DNA from: an uncultured Planctomycetota bacterium
Lineage (GTDB): Bacteria; Planctomycetota; PLA2; JAEUHO01
DNA length: 64,000 nt
Direction of reading: 5' to 3'
Assembly (NCBI GenBank): GCA_963752285.1
Contig: CAVVXN010000005.1
Location: 1,760,001-1,824,000, forward strand
Part shown: positions 57,038 through 64,000 of the stretch, in pieces
Layout of the letters: each line of letters starts with the position of its first letter
Position numbering within the stretch: position 1 is the stretch's first letter
Translations under genes and position numbers: made by a program
The notes under the pieces: generated by a model
Told to the model about the DNA's origin: nothing
Seen by the model: only the letters and a program-made list of their open reading frames with translations
The model's database searches: none

Positions 57038-57850
57038 ATGACGACCCCCCCCGACGCGGCGAAGCCGAACGCGCCCTTCCTGCTCGAGATCCACGACCTC
57101 CACGCCGCCATCGGTGAGAAGCCGATCCTGCGCGGCATCGACCTGGAGGTCCGACCGGGCGAGGTCCACGCGATCATGGGCCCCAACGGGTCGGGCAAGA
57201 GCACGTTCGCGAAGGTGCTCGCGGGGAACGAGCAGGTCCGGGTGACCTCCGGCCTCTTGCGATATCGCGGCGAGGAGCTCCTCCCGCTCCCGGCCGAGGA
57301 GCGGGCGCGCCGGGGGATCTTCCTCGCGTTCCAGTACCCGGTGGAGATCCCGGGCGTCAGCAACGCCTACTTCCTCCGGGCGGGGCTCAACGCGATCCGG
57401 AAGCACCGCGGCGAGGAGGCGCTCGACGCGATGGACTTCCTCTCCCTGGTCCGGGAGCGCATGAAGCGGCTCCACATGGACCCCGCGCTCCTGGAGCGCG
57501 CCGTGAACGACGGCTTCAGCGGCGGCGAGAAGAAGCGCAACGAGGTCCTCCAGATGGCGATCCTCGAGCCGACCCTGGCCGTCCTCGACGAGACGGACTC
57601 CGGCCTCGACATCGACGCGCTGAAGATCGTGGCGCAGGGGGTGAACGACCTGCGGAGCCCCGATCGCGCCTTCGTGGTCGTGACGCACTACCAGCGCCTG
57701 CTCGACTACATCGTCCCCGACCAGGTCCACGTGCTCCACGCGGGCCGGATCGTCAAGACCGGCTGCGCCGAGCTGGCCCAGCGCCTCGAGGCGCAGGGGT
57801 ACGCCTGGCTCGAGGACGAGGTGAGCGCGGGCCACGCGGAGGTCTCGTGA
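57038..57850 (+). CDS. sufC: Fe-S cluster assembly ATPase SufC
   Basis: GPNGSGKST, FQYPVEIPGV, FSGGEKKRNE, LDETDSGLDIDAL, THYQRLL. Confidence 0.97.
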   Translation: MTTPPDAAKPNAPFLLEIHDLHAAIGEKPILRGIDLEVRPGEVHAIMGPNGSGKSTFAKVLAGNEQVRVTSGLLRYRGEELLPLPAEERARRGIFLAFQYPVEIPGVSNAYFLRAGLNAIRKHRGEEALDAMDFLSLVRERMKRLHMDPALLERAVNDGFSGGEKKRNEVLQMAILEPTLAVLDETDSGLDIDALKIVAQGVNDLRSPDRAFVVVTHYQRLLDYIVPDQVHVLHAGRIVKTGCAELAQRLEAQGYAWLEDEVSAGHAEVS

Positions 57851-59175
57851 CGACGGCGAACGCCCTCGCCGGCTGGCAGGCGGCCGCCGCGGTGCGCGCC
57901 GCGAGCCCCCAGCCCGAGTGGCTCGCGCGCGACCGGCGCGCGGCGCTCGACGCGTTCCTGAAGCAGGGACTTCCGACCCCGCGCGTCGAGGCGTGGCGCA
58001 CGACGAACCTCGCGGAGGTGGCGCGCACGCCCTGGACCGACGCGCCGCCGCCCGACGCCGGGACGCTCGATCGCGCGCGCCGTCTGCTCGATACCCTCCC
58101 CCTGCCGCCGGCCCGGACCGCGCGCCTCGTGCTCGTGAACGGACACGTCGCCCGCTCGCTCTCCGTCGCACCCCCGCACCCCGGCTTCCGCGTCGGGAGC
58201 CTCGCGCGCCGGGCGCCCACGCTCGAGGGACGGCTCGGCCGGCTTCTCTCGGTGTCGGACCACCCGTTCCAGGCACTGAACGCCGCGCTGTGGGCCGACG
58301 GCCTCCTCCTCGGGTTCGAGCCGGAGGCGCGGCCCGGGGCGCCCGTCCACGTGGTGTCCGTCGCGATCGGCGGGACGGACGCGCGCGCGGTCCATCCGCG
58401 TCTGCTCGTCCATGTCGACGACGGCGCCGAGGCGGGAATCCTCCTCACCTGGCTCGCCGAGTCCGACGGCCCCCTCCTCGTGAACGGGATGGCCGAGGTC
58501 TTCGTCGACGCGGGAGGGCGCCTCGACCTCCTCGAGATCGAGGCCCAGTCCCCGACGACCGCGCACGTGTGGAACGTCTCCGCGCGGCTCGGACGCGATG
58601 CCCGCCTCGCGCACACGCGCGTGGTCGGCGGCCTCGGCACCGGCCTCGGCGCGGGCCTCGCGCGTGCGGAGCTCGACGTACGGCTCGACGACGAGGGCGC
58701 CGAGGCGACGCTCGACGGGCTCCTGCTCGCCGATGGGACGCGGCACGTGGACGTCCAGACGCACATGGACCACGCCAAGCCGAACGGGACGAGCCGTCAG
58801 CTCTACAAGTGCATCCTCGCCGACCGCGCGACCACGGCGTTCGGCGGGCAGGTCCAGGTCCGCGCGGGCGCGCAGAAGACGAACGCGCGGCAGTCGAACC
58901 ACAACCTGCTGCTCTCCGACACGGCGGTCGCGGACGCAAAGCCGGAGCTCGAGATCCTGGCGGACGACGTGAAATGCGCCCACGGCGCGACCGTCGGCCA
59001 GCTCGACGAGGACGCGCTCTTCTACCTCCGGTCGCGCGGCATCGCGCCGGACGAGGCCCGCGCGATGCTCGTCCGGGCCTTCGCAGGCGAGGTGGCCGAC
59101 CGGGTCGGCCCCGAGGCGCTCCGGGAGCACGCCCGCGCGGTGGTCCGCGCGGCGCTCGCCGTGGGGGCGTGGTGA
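57847..59175 (+). CDS. sufD: Fe-S cluster assembly protein SufD
   Basis: EAWRTTNL, GAQKTNARQSNHNLLL, KPELEILADDVKCAHGATVGQLD..ALFYLRSRGI. Confidence 0.95.
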   Translation: MTTANALAGWQAAAAVRAASPQPEWLARDRRAALDAFLKQGLPTPRVEAWRTTNLAEVARTPWTDAPPPDAGTLDRARRLLDTLPLPPARTARLVLVNGHVARSLSVAPPHPGFRVGSLARRAPTLEGRLGRLLSVSDHPFQALNAALWADGLLLGFEPEARPGAPVHVVSVAIGGTDARAVHPRLLVHVDDGAEAGILLTWLAESDGPLLVNGMAEVFVDAGGRLDLLEIEAQSPTTAHVWNVSARLGRDARLAHTRVVGGLGTGLGAGLARAELDVRLDDEGAEATLDGLLLADGTRHVDVQTHMDHAKPNGTSRQLYKCILADRATTAFGGQVQVRAGAQKTNARQSNHNLLLSDTAVADAKPELEILADDVKCAHGATVGQLDEDALFYLRSRGIAPDEARAMLVRAFAGEVADRVGPEALREHARAVVRAALAVGAW

Positions 59176-60440
59176 CCGCCGTGCCGTCCCCCGCGGCGTC
59201 CTCGTCCCCGTCGTCCACGACCTTCGACGCGGCGGCCGCGGCCGAGGCGTTCCCGATCCTCGCGCGCACGATCCGCGGGCGCCGGCTCGTCTATCTCGAC
59301 AACGCCGCGACCACACAGAAGCCCCGCGCGGTGATCGACGCGCTCCTCAGCTACTACGAGACCCACAACTCGAACGTCCACCGCGGCGTCCACCTCCTGA
59401 GCCAGGAGGCGACGGAGGGCTACGAGGGCGCGCGAGAGACGGTCCGGCGCTTCCTCGGCGCGGCCTCGACCCGCGAGATCGTCTTCACGCGCGGCACGAC
59501 CGAGTCGATCAACCTGGTGGCGCAGGCGTGGGGGCGAGCGAACGTCCGCGCCGGCGACTCGGTGCTCGTCACCGAGATGGAGCACCACAGCGACATCGTG
59601 CCGTGGCAGATGCTCTGCCAGGCGACCGGCGCGCGCCTCGACGTCCTTCCGATCGACGACGCGGGCGCGCTGCGCATGGACCTCCTCGACGCGCACCTCG
59701 GCCCGAGGACCCGGCTCGTGGGCGTCGTGCACGTGAGCAACGCCCTCGGCACGAGGAACCCCGTCGAGGAGGTCGTCCGGCGCGCCCACGCCGCGGGGGC
59801 CCTCGTCCTCGTGGACGGCGCGCAGGCGGTGCCTCACCTGCCGGTGGACGTCCGCGCGATCGACGCGGACTTCTACGCGTTCTCGGGCCACAAGGTCTAC
59901 GGCCCCACCGGCATCGGCGTGCTGTACGGCAAGGAGGCGCTCCTCGACGCGATGCCGCCGTGGCAGGGTGGCGGAGACATGATCAAGATGGTCACGTTCG
60001 AGCACACGACCTGGAACGACCTGCCGTACAAGTTCGAGGCCGGCACGCCCCACGTCGCGGGCGCGATCGGGCTCGGTGTCGCGCTCGAGTACGTGGAGTC
60101 GCTCGGCCGCGACCGGCTCCGCGCCCACGAGCAGGACCTCCTCCGGTACGGGACGGACCGGCTCCTCGCGGTCGAGGGCCTCCGGCTGATCGGGACCGCG
60201 CCCGAGAAGAGCGCCGTCCTCTCGTTCGTGCTGGACGGCGTCCACCCGCACGACGCGGGGACCATCCTCGACCACGAGGGCGTCGCGGTCCGGACCGGCC
60301 ACCACTGCGCGTACCCCGTCATGCAGCGCTTCGGGGTGCCCGCGACGACCCGCGCCTCGCTCGCGCTCTACAACACGCGGGACGACGTCGACGCGCTCGT
60401 TGCGGCTCTCGCCGAGGTTCGGAAGGTGTTCCCCCGATGA
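59172..60440 (+). CDS. sufS: Cysteine desulfurase SufS
   Basis: YLDNAATTQKP, NVHRGVH, MEHHS, FSGHK, VRTGHHCA; GTG 59172. Confidence 0.96.
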   Translation: MTAVPSPAASSSPSSTTFDAAAAAEAFPILARTIRGRRLVYLDNAATTQKPRAVIDALLSYYETHNSNVHRGVHLLSQEATEGYEGARETVRRFLGAASTREIVFTRGTTESINLVAQAWGRANVRAGDSVLVTEMEHHSDIVPWQMLCQATGARLDVLPIDDAGALRMDLLDAHLGPRTRLVGVVHVSNALGTRNPVEEVVRRAHAAGALVLVDGAQAVPHLPVDVRAIDADFYAFSGHKVYGPTGIGVLYGKEALLDAMPPWQGGGDMIKMVTFEHTTWNDLPYKFEAGTPHVAGAIGLGVALEYVESLGRDRLRAHEQDLLRYGTDRLLAVEGLRLIGTAPEKSAVLSFVLDGVHPHDAGTILDHEGVAVRTGHHCAYPVMQRFGVPATTRASLALYNTRDDVDALVAALAEVRKVFPR

Positions 60441-60886
60441 GCGATCTCCGGTCCCTCTACCAGGAGGTCGTGCTCGACCACGGCCGGAGCCCGCGGAACC
60501 GGCGACGGATCGAGGGGGCCCGCGAGGCGAAGGGAGAGAACCCGCTCTGCGGCGACGAGGTGACCGTGTACGTGCGGATCGAGGACGGCGTGATCCGGGA
60601 CGCCTCGTTCGAGGGATCGGGCTGCGCGATCTCGACGGCGTCCGCCTCGATCATGACCCAGGTCCTCCCGGGAAAGACCCCCGCGGAGGCGCTCCGCCTC
60701 TTCGAGCGGTACCACGACGTCGTGACGGGTCGCGCCGACCCCGCCGGGGGGACGGAGGACCTGGGCAAGCTCGCGGCCTTCGCCGGCGTCTCCGAGTTCC
60801 CCGTCCGGGTGAAGTGCGCGACGCTCGCCTGGCACACGCTGAAGGCCGCCCTCGAGCAGCAGCCCGAGATCGTCACGACCGAATGA
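60437..60886 (+). CDS. sufU: SUF system NifU-family protein SufU
   Basis: LYQEVVLDH, NPLCGD, GCAISTASAS, PVRVKCATLAWH; ATG 60437. Confidence 0.93.
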   Translation: MSDLRSLYQEVVLDHGRSPRNRRRIEGAREAKGENPLCGDEVTVYVRIEDGVIRDASFEGSGCAISTASASIMTQVLPGKTPAEALRLFERYHDVVTGRADPAGGTEDLGKLAAFAGVSEFPVRVKCATLAWHTLKAALEQQPEIVTTE

Positions 60887-60917
60887 AGCCCCGCGCCGCC
60901 GCGAACGGGAGTCCCCG

Positions 60918-61280
60918 ATGACCGAAGCCCCCGATCCCCAACCCGCCGCGGAAGAGCCCCTCGCCCCGGAGGCGCTCGGCCGGATCCGGGAGGACGTCGT
61001 GGAGATGCTGCGAACCGTCTACGACCCCGAGATCCCCGTCAACGTGTACGAGCTCGGGCTCGTGTACGACGTGGACGTGAAGGCCGACGGCTTCGTCGTG
61101 GTCCGGATGACGCTGACCTCCCCCTCCTGCCCGGTGGCCGAGAGCCTCCCCGGCGAGGTCGAAGTCCGGGTGAACGGCGTCGAGGGGGTCCGCGGCTGCG
61201 AGGTGGACCTCACGTGGGACCCGCCCTGGGACCCCTCGAAGATGAGCGAGGCGGCCCGCCTCCAGCTCGGGTTCATGTAG
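60918..61280 (+). CDS. sufT: SufT/DUF59 Fe-S assembly protein
   Basis: VYDPEIPVNVYELGL, MTLTSPSCP, WDPPW..MSEAARLQLG. Confidence 0.9.
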   Translation: MTEAPDPQPAAEEPLAPEALGRIREDVVEMLRTVYDPEIPVNVYELGLVYDVDVKADGFVVVRMTLTSPSCPVAESLPGEVEVRVNGVEGVRGCEVDLTWDPPWDPSKMSEAARLQLGFM

Positions 61281-61393
61281 GGGCCGAGACGCCGCGGCCG
61301 CGCCCGCGCGGGGCCCCCACCGGTGTATGTTGAGCCCACCCCGAGGCCGGTCCGGACGCCTCGGCGTCGGCCTCGTGCCGAGGAGGGAACACC

Positions 61394-62392
61394 ATGCGGA
61401 CCACCGCGCTCCTGACCGCAGCGCTTCTCGGTGTCTCGTTCGGCGTCGCGAACCCGGCGCTCTCTGCGCCCGGCGTCGGCGACGCCGCGCCGGCGTTCGA
61501 CGGGAAGGGCTATCACAACACCCCGCCGATCTCGATGTCGGACCTGAAGGGGCGCGTGATCCTCCTCGAGATCTTTCGAACCTGGTGAGGCCCCTGCAAG
61601 GGTCAGGTCGGGCACCTGAACGAGCTTCACGAGCGCTACGCAGAGAAGGGCCTCACGGTCCTCGCGATCTCCAACGAGGACGAGGAGAAGGTGGACGAGT
61701 TCGTCTCGAGCCTCTCTCCCGCCTACCCGATCGTCGTCGAGTCCTCCGACAGCCAGACGCTCTACGGCGTGAACGGATTCCCGTCGTCGGTCCTGATCGG
61801 CCCCGACGGGAAGATCGCCTGGTCGGGCCACCCGGCCAAGGTCTCCGAGGACCAGATCGAGGAGCTCCTCCGCGACGTCGAGCTGTTCCCCGACCTCCCC
61901 TCGAAGCTCGTCCCGATCCGGCGGTCGATCGAGAAGGGCCGGTACGAGGAGGCCCGGGTCGCGCTCGAGAAGGCGCGTGACGCGGCCGCGTCGGACGAGA
62001 CCGAGTCCAAGTGGGTCGAGAAGCTCGGCGCCTGGCTCGCGTGGTACCGGACGTCGGCGGTGGACCGCGCCACGAAGGCGACGGACCGCGGCGACTTCTA
62101 CGTGGCTTGGAAGACGTGGCTCGACGTCGAGAAGTCCTGGAAGGGCTCGGACCTCGAGAAGGAGGCCGAGGAGAAGGTGAAGGACCTTCTCGGCGACAAG
62201 GACCACAAGAACGAGATCGAGGCGGGGAAGAAGCTCGCCGAGATCAAGGACCGCATCCGAGGCGAGAGCCCGAAGAAGGCGATCAAGCAGCTCGAGCGGA
62301 TGTCGAGCAAGCGGTACGACGGGACGCTCGCCGCGAAGCAGGCGCAGGAGCTGATCGAGACGTACCAGAAGGAGATCGAGGCGCTGAAGTAG
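61394..62392 (+). CDS. Predicted selenoprotein: signal peptide + TlpA/redoxin domain with UxxC motif + helical C-terminal domain (332 aa with UGA read as Sec)
   Basis: ORFs 61394-61588 and 61691-62392 are in one frame separated only by TGA 61586-61588; read-through gives LKGRVILLEIFRTW-U-GPCKGQVGHLNELHERY and the cis-Pro region YGVNGFPSSVLIGPDG. Confidence 0.88.
61598..61627 (+). promoter_or_regulatory. Candidate bacterial SECIS hairpin
   Basis: TCAGGT-CGGGC-ACCTGA (61603-61619) perfect 6-bp stem with G-rich loop starting 15 nt after the UGA; lower AAG/CTT pairing. Confidence 0.7.
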
Positions 62393-62404: not shown

Positions 62405-64000
62405 TCAGACCCGTCGTCCCGCGCGCTCCGGGGCCTCTTTCACGTGGAGGTCCAGCTGCGGGAACGGGATCGAGATCCCGTGCCGGCGGAGCGTCTCGAA
62501 GATCGCGTACCTCAGGTCCGACGCCACCGCGAAGCGGGAGGTCAGGCGCGGGGTGTAGCACAGCAGCGTGAAGTCGATCGACGACGCGCCGAAGTTCATG
62601 AACCACACGGTGGGCTCGGGATCCGCCAGGACATCGGAGTGCTGGGTCGCGACCTCCAGGAGCAGATCACGCACGCGCCGCGGGTCCTCGCCGTAGTCCA
62701 CACCCACCTCGATCTTCAGGCGCGTGTGGCCCATGCCGTACGAGAGGTTCGTGACGCGCTCGCCGAGCATCTGGCGGTTCGGGATCGTTACGCTCGTGTT
62801 CTCGTACGTGCGGATCACGGTTCCCCGCATACGGATGTCCTCGACCCGCCCCGTCGTCTCCCCCACCTGGACCGTGTCGCCGACGCGGATCGGACGCTCG
62901 ACCAGCATGATCAGACCGCTGAAGAAGTTGCCGATCACGTCCTGCAGACCGAGTCCGATGCCGACGCCGGCCGCGCCGAAGAACCAGCCGAGCGACCCGG
63001 TCTCGATGCCCACCGCTCCCAGCGCGAGCACGAACGCCAGAGCGATCACGGTGTAGCGGAGCACGGCGAGGATCGCGTACCGCGCCCCGATCTCGAGCCG
63101 AGTCCGCGGGAACACGAAGAACGTCAGGGTCTGACGCACCAGCCAGCCGGCCGCGAGCGCGAGCACGACCTGCAGGATCCCCCCCCCACGCGTCCCCAGG
63201 TCGGCCAGCCGGAGATCCCGAAGAGCGGGGTCGAGAGCGCGTGCGCCACGTCCGAGGGGCCGATCTCCCAGCCCGCCAGGACCCAGGCGACCGCCCCGAG
63301 TACCACGAGGATCCGAAGCGCCACCTCGAGGATTCGCTCCAGCCCGAGCAGCACCGGGTCGGGTTGGAGCTCGCCGCCCGCGGCCGCGCTCGCCACGCCG
63401 GCGGGCGCCTCGTCGCCGCGCAGGTACCCGATCGAGTTGACGAGCGCGGCGCGGAGGTAGTGGTACGCGATCACGGCGACCACCAGCTGTACGCCCGTGG
63501 CCACCAGGTTCGACGCGACGAAGTGGGCGAGCGGCACGTAGCCGAGCCCCTCCACCACGACGAGGAGCAGCCCCGCCAGGATCAGGAGCGGCACGAGGAG
63601 CCGCCCCGCGAACCGGCCGATGAGGCCCCAGAAGCGGTGTCCCTGCCGGTTCCTGAGCCACGCGAAGAGACCGGTGGAGGCGACGAGCGCGGCGATCCCG
63701 ATCACGAAGAGGGCGCTCTCGAGGACCCCGAGGGCGGCGACGACCGACGGTCGCCACGCGTTCTCCGTGACGAGCCAGCGGCCGATCTCGCTCACGAAGA
63801 GGAGGAAGAGGAACAACCGGAGCCCGGCCGCGAGGGAGCGTGCCTTCGCGTCACGGAGCGGGAGGATCCGGAGCGCCGGACGCGTCGGAGACAGCACCTC
63901 CATCAGGAGGCTCCGCGCGAGGCCGTACGCCAGGAACGCGAGGCCCGCGACGAGCGCCTGCCGGCGGATCCCCTCGGTCGCGCCGAGCAGGCGAGGGATC
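62405..64000 (-). CDS. Large MscS-family mechanosensitive channel, 5'-truncated by the window and frameshifted at a G9 run
   Basis: C-terminal MscS motifs (GVGIGLGLQD, ERPIRVGD, IPNRQ, GISIPFPQLDLH) in one frame; upstream TM helices in another frame open to the window end; switch at 63179-63187. Confidence 0.8.

Follow-up and report, generated by a model that had tools for sequence, protein, structure and literature searches.

Positions 61394..62392 on the forward strand of a 64,000-nucleotide window, taken from contig CAVVXN010000005.1 of an uncultured Planctomycetota bacterium (positions 1,760,001 to 1,824,000), very probably form one gene for an exported selenoprotein, in which a thioredoxin fold with a U-G-P-C active site (U, selenocysteine) is followed by a helical domain and which would reduce disulfides in the cell envelope. 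A preliminary description of the window, based on its letters, had proposed a hidden exported selenoprotein of this kind, split in two by gene calling. The new element is a two-domain exported UGPC redoxin selenoprotein family that is not covered by curated models, whereas the UxxC selenoprotein type was already known. The features of the gene, in window coordinates as everywhere below unless another contig is named, are the following.

61394..62392, forward strand: complete selenoprotein gene of 332 codons plus TAG, with selenocysteine (Sec) at codon 65 (translation with TGA read as Sec, no further stop; 41 homologues align over the whole length).
61380..61386, forward strand: Shine-Dalgarno-like GAGGAGG, 7 nucleotides (nt) 5' of the ATG at 61394 (sequence inspection).
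61394..61468, forward strand: signal-peptide-like N terminus, spanning roughly residues 1-19 or 1-25 and made up, in this order, of one Arg, a hydrophobic core and GVA/LSA.
61475..61873, forward strand: thioredoxin-fold catalytic domain (Redoxin / AhpC-TSA, ResA/DsbE-like), residues 28-160 (Pfam and Foldseek).
61586..61588, forward strand: UGA Sec codon (codon 65), first position of the U-G-P-C redox motif (sequence and homologue column).
61603..61619, forward strand: hairpin UCAGGU-CGGGC-ACCUGA, resembling a selenocysteine insertion sequence (SECIS) and overlapping the codons for G-Q-V-G-H-L-N (sequence inspection).
61691..62392, forward strand: fragment of 233 amino acids (aa) with a GTG start, recorded by public gene calling instead of the real gene (P0002, 100% identical over 233 aa).
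61889..62389, forward strand: predicted 8-helix TPR-like domain without a named family, residues ~166-332, about 165 residues (AlphaFold2 and profile search).

The frame holds a single in-frame TGA, in the context R-T-W-TGA-G-P-C and hence at the first Cys position of the WCxxC motif, where the preliminary description had placed it, and it remains open beyond this codon up to the TAG at 62390-62392, so that reading TGA as Sec yields 332 residues and zero other stops. Under translation table 11 the same stretch gives two open reading frames (ORFs), one of 64 aa (61394..61588) and one of 233 aa (61691..62392), and each half has its own protein entry in the public collection (P0193 and P0002, respectively), which is the split that had been suspected; the GAGGAGG that had been noted upstream is also in place. 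The two ORFs and the two stored proteins are what could be said for a pair of genuine short genes (64 aa and 233 aa), or else for a pseudogene or a sequencing error, but such explanations are extremely improbable: 32 homologues, drawn from 23 genomes, have the TGA at this column with both flanking frames intact, and the split would run through the middle of the active site of a thioredoxin fold, whereas the joined sequence is modelled with a predicted local distance difference test (pLDDT) score of 92. As to a sequencing error, a metagenome contig from a wetland, obtained in a different study, shows about 97% identity, covers 61499-61876 at a depth of 2.9 and carries 11 differences, none of which falls in the TGA or the hairpin. 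The preliminary description had allowed for reads with TGC or TGT at this codon; this independent contig keeps TGA.

The strongest evidence for one selenoprotein gene comes from its relatives. Searching 41 genomes, that of the window and 40 relatives, in six frames returned many full-length matches, mostly with exactly one TGA, and the homologue set comprises 41 full-length ORFs at 40 loci in 31 related genomes, a count that leaves out the partial row G004:C21 (query 75-322) and lower rows matching the thioredoxin domain alone. These homologues measure 313-388 aa and align end to end. The alignment that had been proposed as a check returned Sec or Cys in all 41 rows at the Sec column of the window, namely 32 U and 9 C; each Sec form contains a single TGA, and other internal stops are present in 0 of the 41. 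The pattern used to recognise bacterial selenoproteins, an in-frame UGA aligned with Cys or UGA at the catalytic position, is therefore found in this family. With TGA there in 32 of the 41 homologues and Cys in the other 9, chance falls far short of explaining the placement of the TGA at the active site. Exchange between Sec and Cys at the catalytic column is the usual signature of true selenoprotein families, and a maximum-likelihood tree of the set needs 4 Sec/Cys changes, its starred branches forcing at least 3. Five of the Cys forms (L050, L053, L054, L056 and L057) carry C-P-H-C, which we take to be a DsbA-type motif, and constitute a deep sister clade whose amino-acid composition is unlike that of the rest of the alignment; three other Cys lineages are nested among Sec forms.

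A search of genome contig records with an 8-row alignment gave 22 U and 2 C at the Sec column, a tally that overlaps the 41-row set and is biased because the search patterns were derived from the hairpin-encoded peptide; searching the same kind of records with the window protein alone found no related loci. All 24 full-length loci from named genome records in this pattern-limited search are titled Planctomycetota, Planctomycetia or Planctomycetaceae metagenome-assembled genomes, and the family appears to come mostly from Planctomycetota. Outside the window, the same genome encodes one further Sec-form paralogue (locus L041, G000:C5:251418-252359, reverse strand), which is 38% identical, has the motif T-U-V-P-C and is represented in databases by a 260-aa fragment (P0045). 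At L040 (G028:C180:22380-24366) two Sec-form copies lie in tandem on the same strand. The 41 family genes (L021-L060) end in TAG in 32 cases, in TGA in 8 and in TAA in 1, and the bias towards TAG is seen both in Sec forms (26/32) and in Cys forms (6/9).

The window genome (4.64 Mb in 5 contigs) encodes the Sec machinery that the preliminary description had asked for, with all four components above curated cut-offs: a tRNA-Sec (70 bits against a cut-off of 47, its TCA anticodon confirmed by ARAGORN), selA (507 bits), selB (317 bits) and selD (356 bits). The selD gene has an in-frame TGA of its own within the active-site motif G-A-G-G-U. It adjoins selA at G000:C1:734626-736999 (loci L009 and L018), and the hairpin 3' of its TGA differs from that of the UGPC gene. 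Across the genomes searched, selB exceeds its cut-off in 39 of 41; the 32 Sec forms are distributed over 23 genomes, each of which has selB above cut-off, while G040, one of the two genomes lacking it, carries a Cys form. TGA ends about 67% of the open frames of at least 500 codons in the window genome by a crude count, and since it closes most long frames it is not reassigned. All of this bears on a different explanation, in which the UGA would be read as Cys or Trp, suffer near-cognate read-through or be partly recoded, leaving a full-length protein free of selenium. Although the hairpin discussed below matches no curated SECIS model, as this explanation would have it, we consider it very unlikely in view of the complete Sec system, the confinement of the examined Sec forms to selB-bearing genomes, the Sec/Cys exchange at the catalytic column and the use of TGA as a genuine stop.

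The hairpin is located where the preliminary description had seen it, beginning 15 nt after the A of the TGA: a 6-bp stem made of TCAGGT (61603-61608) and ACCTGA (61614-61619) encloses the loop CGGGC (61609-61613), so that a G lies in the apical loop. According to the position of the stem, most Sec forms can be placed in two groups. In group A, 19 Sec forms including that of the window keep (N)CAGGU(G)-loop-(C)ACCUG(N). Group B comprises 6 members of one paralogue clade, in which the stem is shifted 4 nt upstream and reads GUGNCC-AGGUY-GGNCAC; its middle pair is CG in 3 members, GC in 2 and UA in 1, and a change among Ala, Gly and Val is matched by a synonymous change in a Gly codon located three codons further on. 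Some of the variation in the hairpin among TGA forms is compensatory. The 17-mer of the window hairpin recurs unchanged in proteins that are only 30-42% identical. Codon usage points the same way: the stem Leu is CTG in 19/19 hairpins of group A, whose genes use CTG for 37% of their Leu residues overall, and the loop Val is GTT in 5/6 loops of group B, whose genes use GTT for 13% of their Val residues, a choice that fits an RNA constraint. The Cys forms mostly vary the Q-V-G-H-L segment (for example Q-A-P-H-L or S-V-P-A-L) and have lost the stem. Seven Sec forms, six order-level relatives and L048, stand outside both hairpin alignments, and in 6 of these 7 another hairpin, identified by eye only, lies about 36 nt past the UGA. 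Among the order-level relatives, L039, L040, L051, L052 and L055 have a first hairpin whose loop lacks G and share the hairpin AGCUC-CGUGM-GAGCU about 36 nt past the UGA, again by eye.

Several observations weigh against the proposal of one exported, disulfide-reducing selenoprotein, most of them concerning the hairpin. Its folding energy is ordinary for a G+C-rich sequence (z = 0.54), and 140 of 200 shuffled sequences fold equally well or better; because its stability is unremarkable, the support for the hairpin is its conservation, not its stability. Rfam returned no family when the whole window was searched at gathering level, and zero matches for 61560-61680 at E <= 10, so that curated SECIS models give no support. 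The pairing in group A (92.5% of cells paired, against 20-38% with the partner columns slid) is an inflated figure, as pairing figures here are generally, the groups having been sorted by eye on the very feature that was counted. Of the seven group A stem pairs, five are invariant and hence uninformative, and the outer pair (CG in 6 members, UA in 6 and AU in 1) is unpaired in 6 of the 19. One Cys form, L033, retains a similar hairpin, and since a conserved peptide is specified by the codons of the hairpin as well, the conservation could be partly at the protein level. Beyond the hairpin, one RNA run gave no cover of the gene, a result that is uninformative either way, and coverage in runs X1 and X3 was confined to parts outside the TGA. 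The genes for SufS, SufU, a DUF59 protein and an MscS-type channel that surround the gene in the window lie beside none of the homologues in L022-L060, and the neighbourhood gives no functional clue. Finally, export, the direction of the redox reaction, the DsbD partner and a client-binding role are all things that we infer. Set against these points, a stem-loop with a G in its loop is present 3' of the UGA and is conserved among Sec forms, despite its ordinary stability and the zero matches in Rfam.

The N terminus of the protein had been described as signal-peptide-like, and both its sequence and the 41-sequence alignment agree, hydrophobic N termini that close with Ala-x-Ala-type sites being shared by many homologues. 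In the AlphaFold2 model the N-terminal 20 residues are disordered (pLDDT ~50 across residues 1-20). These features suggest that the protein is exported to the periplasm.

Residues 28-154 match the Pfam families AhpC-TSA (70.2 bits, E 1.9e-19, cut-off 26), Redoxin (59.9 bits, cut-off 26.6) and Thioredoxin_8 (39.7 bits, cut-off 27). The label TlpA-like given in the preliminary description holds at the level of the superfamily, AhpC-TSA and Redoxin being over their cut-offs, and fails at the level of specific families: no NCBIfam model reaches its cut-off for the whole protein, the best being ResA, and the scores of the ResA/TlpA/DsbE models stay well below theirs (NF002854, 74.7 against 170; NF047696, 39.1 against 230; TIGR00385, 38.8 against 123). 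The full-length AlphaFold2 model, built on the 41-row alignment, has a pLDDT of 92.2 and a predicted TM-score of 0.83, and shows a strand at 55-60 followed by U65-G-P-C68 and helices at 66-70 and 72-85, with the CxxC-type motif at the start of helix 1. With Foldseek, the nearest solved folds of the catalytic domain are DsbE (3gl3), ResA (1su9 and others) and the C-terminal domain of DipZ, 3gl3 and 1su9 being matched at E ~1e-9 with a TM-score of 0.78-0.84 on the target.

The same matches leave room for a genuine selenoprotein with another activity, that is, a peroxidase ('Prx-like') or an oxidase/isomerase rather than a disulfide reductase, which we regard as unlikely. The sister clade of five Cys forms with C-P-H-C, presumably the DsbA motif, would suit an oxidase or isomerase. 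A peroxidase would be in keeping with the top Pfam match, AhpC-TSA, and UxxC relatives of peroxiredoxins have been named 'Prx-like protein' in the literature (PMC1088965). The peroxiredoxin active-site motif, however, is given in a 2026 review as PxxxTxxC/U (PMC13188914), and the window protein lacks it: the residues leading to Sec are L-E-I-F-R-T-W-U, with no Pro and with Thr at -2, within W-U-G-P-C. Moreover, among solved folds the nearest belong to the reductases ResA and DsbE and include no peroxiredoxins, and ResA is also the NCBIfam model that scores highest, although it stays below its cut-off. Disulfide reduction thus remains the preferred activity for the UGPC selenoprotein.

Past the thioredoxin fold, the extra helical domain of about 150 aa that had been predicted is indeed present, its size being closer to 165 residues (roughly 166-332). 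The full-length model places eight helices between residues 170 and 331, and the C-terminal domain modelled alone reaches a pLDDT of 96.6. It matches 0 NCBIfam families and, in Pfam, noise only; weak TPR_14 or TPR_16 matches occur in 3 of 40 members (Pfam, E 0.0047-0.043). A Foldseek comparison of this domain with the PDB found nothing at E <= 0.001, the best matches being the TPRs of BamD and YbgF at E 0.1-0.3, and VIA-align (wide) gave Z values up to 8.4 to TPR-type proteins, which lie within the background for helical models. Its neighbours in the ESM Atlas are unnamed Planctomycetota clusters, followed by TPR clusters, with scores of 0.75-0.87. From the model we read this part as a private TPR-like helical-repeat domain, and because of the TPR resemblance it may have a client-binding role. 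The module is also repeated in other architectures (P0060, P0109, P0151 and P0173, 458-1021 aa), with 5 to 9 stretches in each.

Taken as a mechanism, the proposed UGPC selenoprotein would work as follows. A UGA at codon 65 occupies the first position of a thioredoxin-type U-G-P-C in a genome with tRNA-Sec, SelA, SelB and SelD. By the standard bacterial mechanism, SelB with Sec-tRNA(Sec) would bind the hairpin 15 nt downstream and selenocysteine would be inserted, giving a 332-aa preprotein that the N-terminal signal peptide would route through the Sec (secretory) translocon to the periplasm. The mature protein, judging by the model and the family matches, would consist of a ResA/DsbE/TlpA-like thioredoxin fold and then the 8-helix TPR-like domain. 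Sec65 and Cys68 would cycle between a selenol/thiol pair and a selenylsulfide, thereby reducing disulfides or other oxidised cysteines in envelope proteins, while the helical domain may hold or select the client. Electrons would probably be provided by a DsbD/CcdA-type membrane protein, and a DsbD_TM gene (158 bits) is encoded elsewhere in the window genome.

Among reductases of known families, ResA, DsbE(CcmG) and TlpA resemble the window protein in their fold, in the CxxC-type motif after beta-1 and in their extracytoplasmic location, which is predicted for the window protein; they differ from it in that the latter has Sec for the first Cys, an extra helical domain of 165 residues and no adjoining cytochrome-maturation or copper-chaperone genes. 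The model NF041054, 'ResA-like WAxxUGC motif-containing protein' (354 positions), likewise describes a ResA-like selenoprotein of similar length with an extension past the thioredoxin fold. However, the window protein scores 46.6 bits against a cut-off of 300, aligns only in its thioredoxin part (profile positions 94-235) and has T-W-U-G-P-C rather than WAxxUGC. The CnoX/YbbN 'chaperedoxins', which we take to be cytoplasmic proteins with a thioredoxin domain and a TPR domain and without Sec, present a similar arrangement, with an N-terminal thioredoxin fold followed by a TPR-like domain that could hold clients; no CnoX chain was among the structural matches listed, and kinship to CnoX/YbbN is unsupported.

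Within selenoproteins, catalogues of UxxC forms go back to 2005, when the 'thiol-disulfide isomerase-like' (cd02966) and 'Prx-like' types were listed in the Sargasso Sea study by Zhang, Fomenko and Gladyshev (PMC1088965); the tables of PMC1794560 include a 'Prx-like thiol:disulfide oxidoreductase' as well as a 'thiol:disulfide interchange protein', and 'Redoxin family' selenoproteins are tabulated in the 2026 review (PMC13188914). The published UxxC redoxins share with the window protein a thioredoxin fold, Sec as the first residue of UxxC, Cys homologues and a usual mis-annotation as truncated genes. In the passages considered they are described by catalytic domain and motif, with no mention of a fused C-terminal helical domain; in the same passages, a signal peptide has 0 occurrences in PMC1088965 and Planctomycetota 0 occurrences in PMC13188914. 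Two 'thiol-disulfide isomerase-like thioredoxin' selenoprotein candidates are listed for the planctomycete genome P1 (PMC4807772, Table S9). Each was annotated as two genes and has a Cys homologue as its closest database hit. For these candidates bSECISearch found no SECIS, and the likeness is one of table descriptions, which give neither sequences nor domain make-up (PMC4807772). The suggestion that the gene is an unannotated family member is a fair one, as none of the NCBIfam models claims the protein and its C-terminal domain has no family, with the qualification that the general kind is already published (PMC1088965, PMC13188914).

The way in which the family is stored in databases was apparent from a profile of the C-terminal domain, with hits counted as cluster representatives. 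Among 1.84 billion, it retrieved 3271 representatives at E <= 0.001, 1174 at E <= 1e-10 and 40 at E <= 1e-30. In the best 150 of the 3271 representatives, 109 are without the active-site column, as they begin at window residues 66-80, directly past the Sec codon (58), at residues 81-110 (24) or past residue 110 (27); the others are full length, either with CxxC (25) or with residues other than these in the motif columns, or else misaligned (16). The truncated database proteins that could be mapped to DNA all lie just past a TGA (8/8), the mapped full-length ones are all Cys forms (3/3), and the database proteins most closely related to that of the window are, without exception, fragments of 257-262 aa. 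Entries that start past the active-site column have apparently been cut at the UGA. This makes the family a concrete, well-supported instance of systematic mis-annotation, mostly stored as headless fragments without the catalytic residue, and any survey that counts selenium use or redox systems of the envelope in these bacteria would consequently be wrong.

To the known UxxC redoxin selenoproteins, the family adds a conserved domain without a named family (3271 representatives), and it suggests that uncultured Planctomycetota carry out selenium-dependent redox reactions in their cell envelope. A curated family model and a lineage-specific SECIS model could be built from its Sec/Cys pairs and from the hairpins in their two registers. 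A broader proposal, which we put forward tentatively and with more doubt than confidence, is that the gene is the founding example of a large, uncurated, exported two-domain selenoprotein family, in which a U-G-P-C thioredoxin fold is joined to a private TPR-like domain that binds clients, and which acts as selenium-based envelope 'chaperedoxins' or substrate-specific reductases, abundant in soil and wetland Planctomycetota with two to three paralogues per genome, nearly invisible in databases through cutting at the UGA, and with a SECIS within Q-V-G-H-L that changes register between paralogue clades. If true, it would provide a natural case study of SECIS movement within a coding sequence.

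With regard to its surroundings in the window, the gene is preceded by those for SufD, SufS, SufU and a DUF59 (FeS_assembly_P) protein, at 57847-61280 on the forward strand, with 113 nt between the end of the suf operon and the selenoprotein gene, and an MscS-type channel gene on the reverse strand (62405-63757) converges on its 3' end. Membership of the suf operon was considered and dropped, as the suf neighbours are not found beside relatives, and the adjacency looks incidental. The only recurrent neighbour, which suggests no function, is a co-oriented gene with a weak beta-ketoacyl-synthase N-terminal match, located directly 5' in 6 of 19 loci (L022, L023, L025, L028, L035 and L037).

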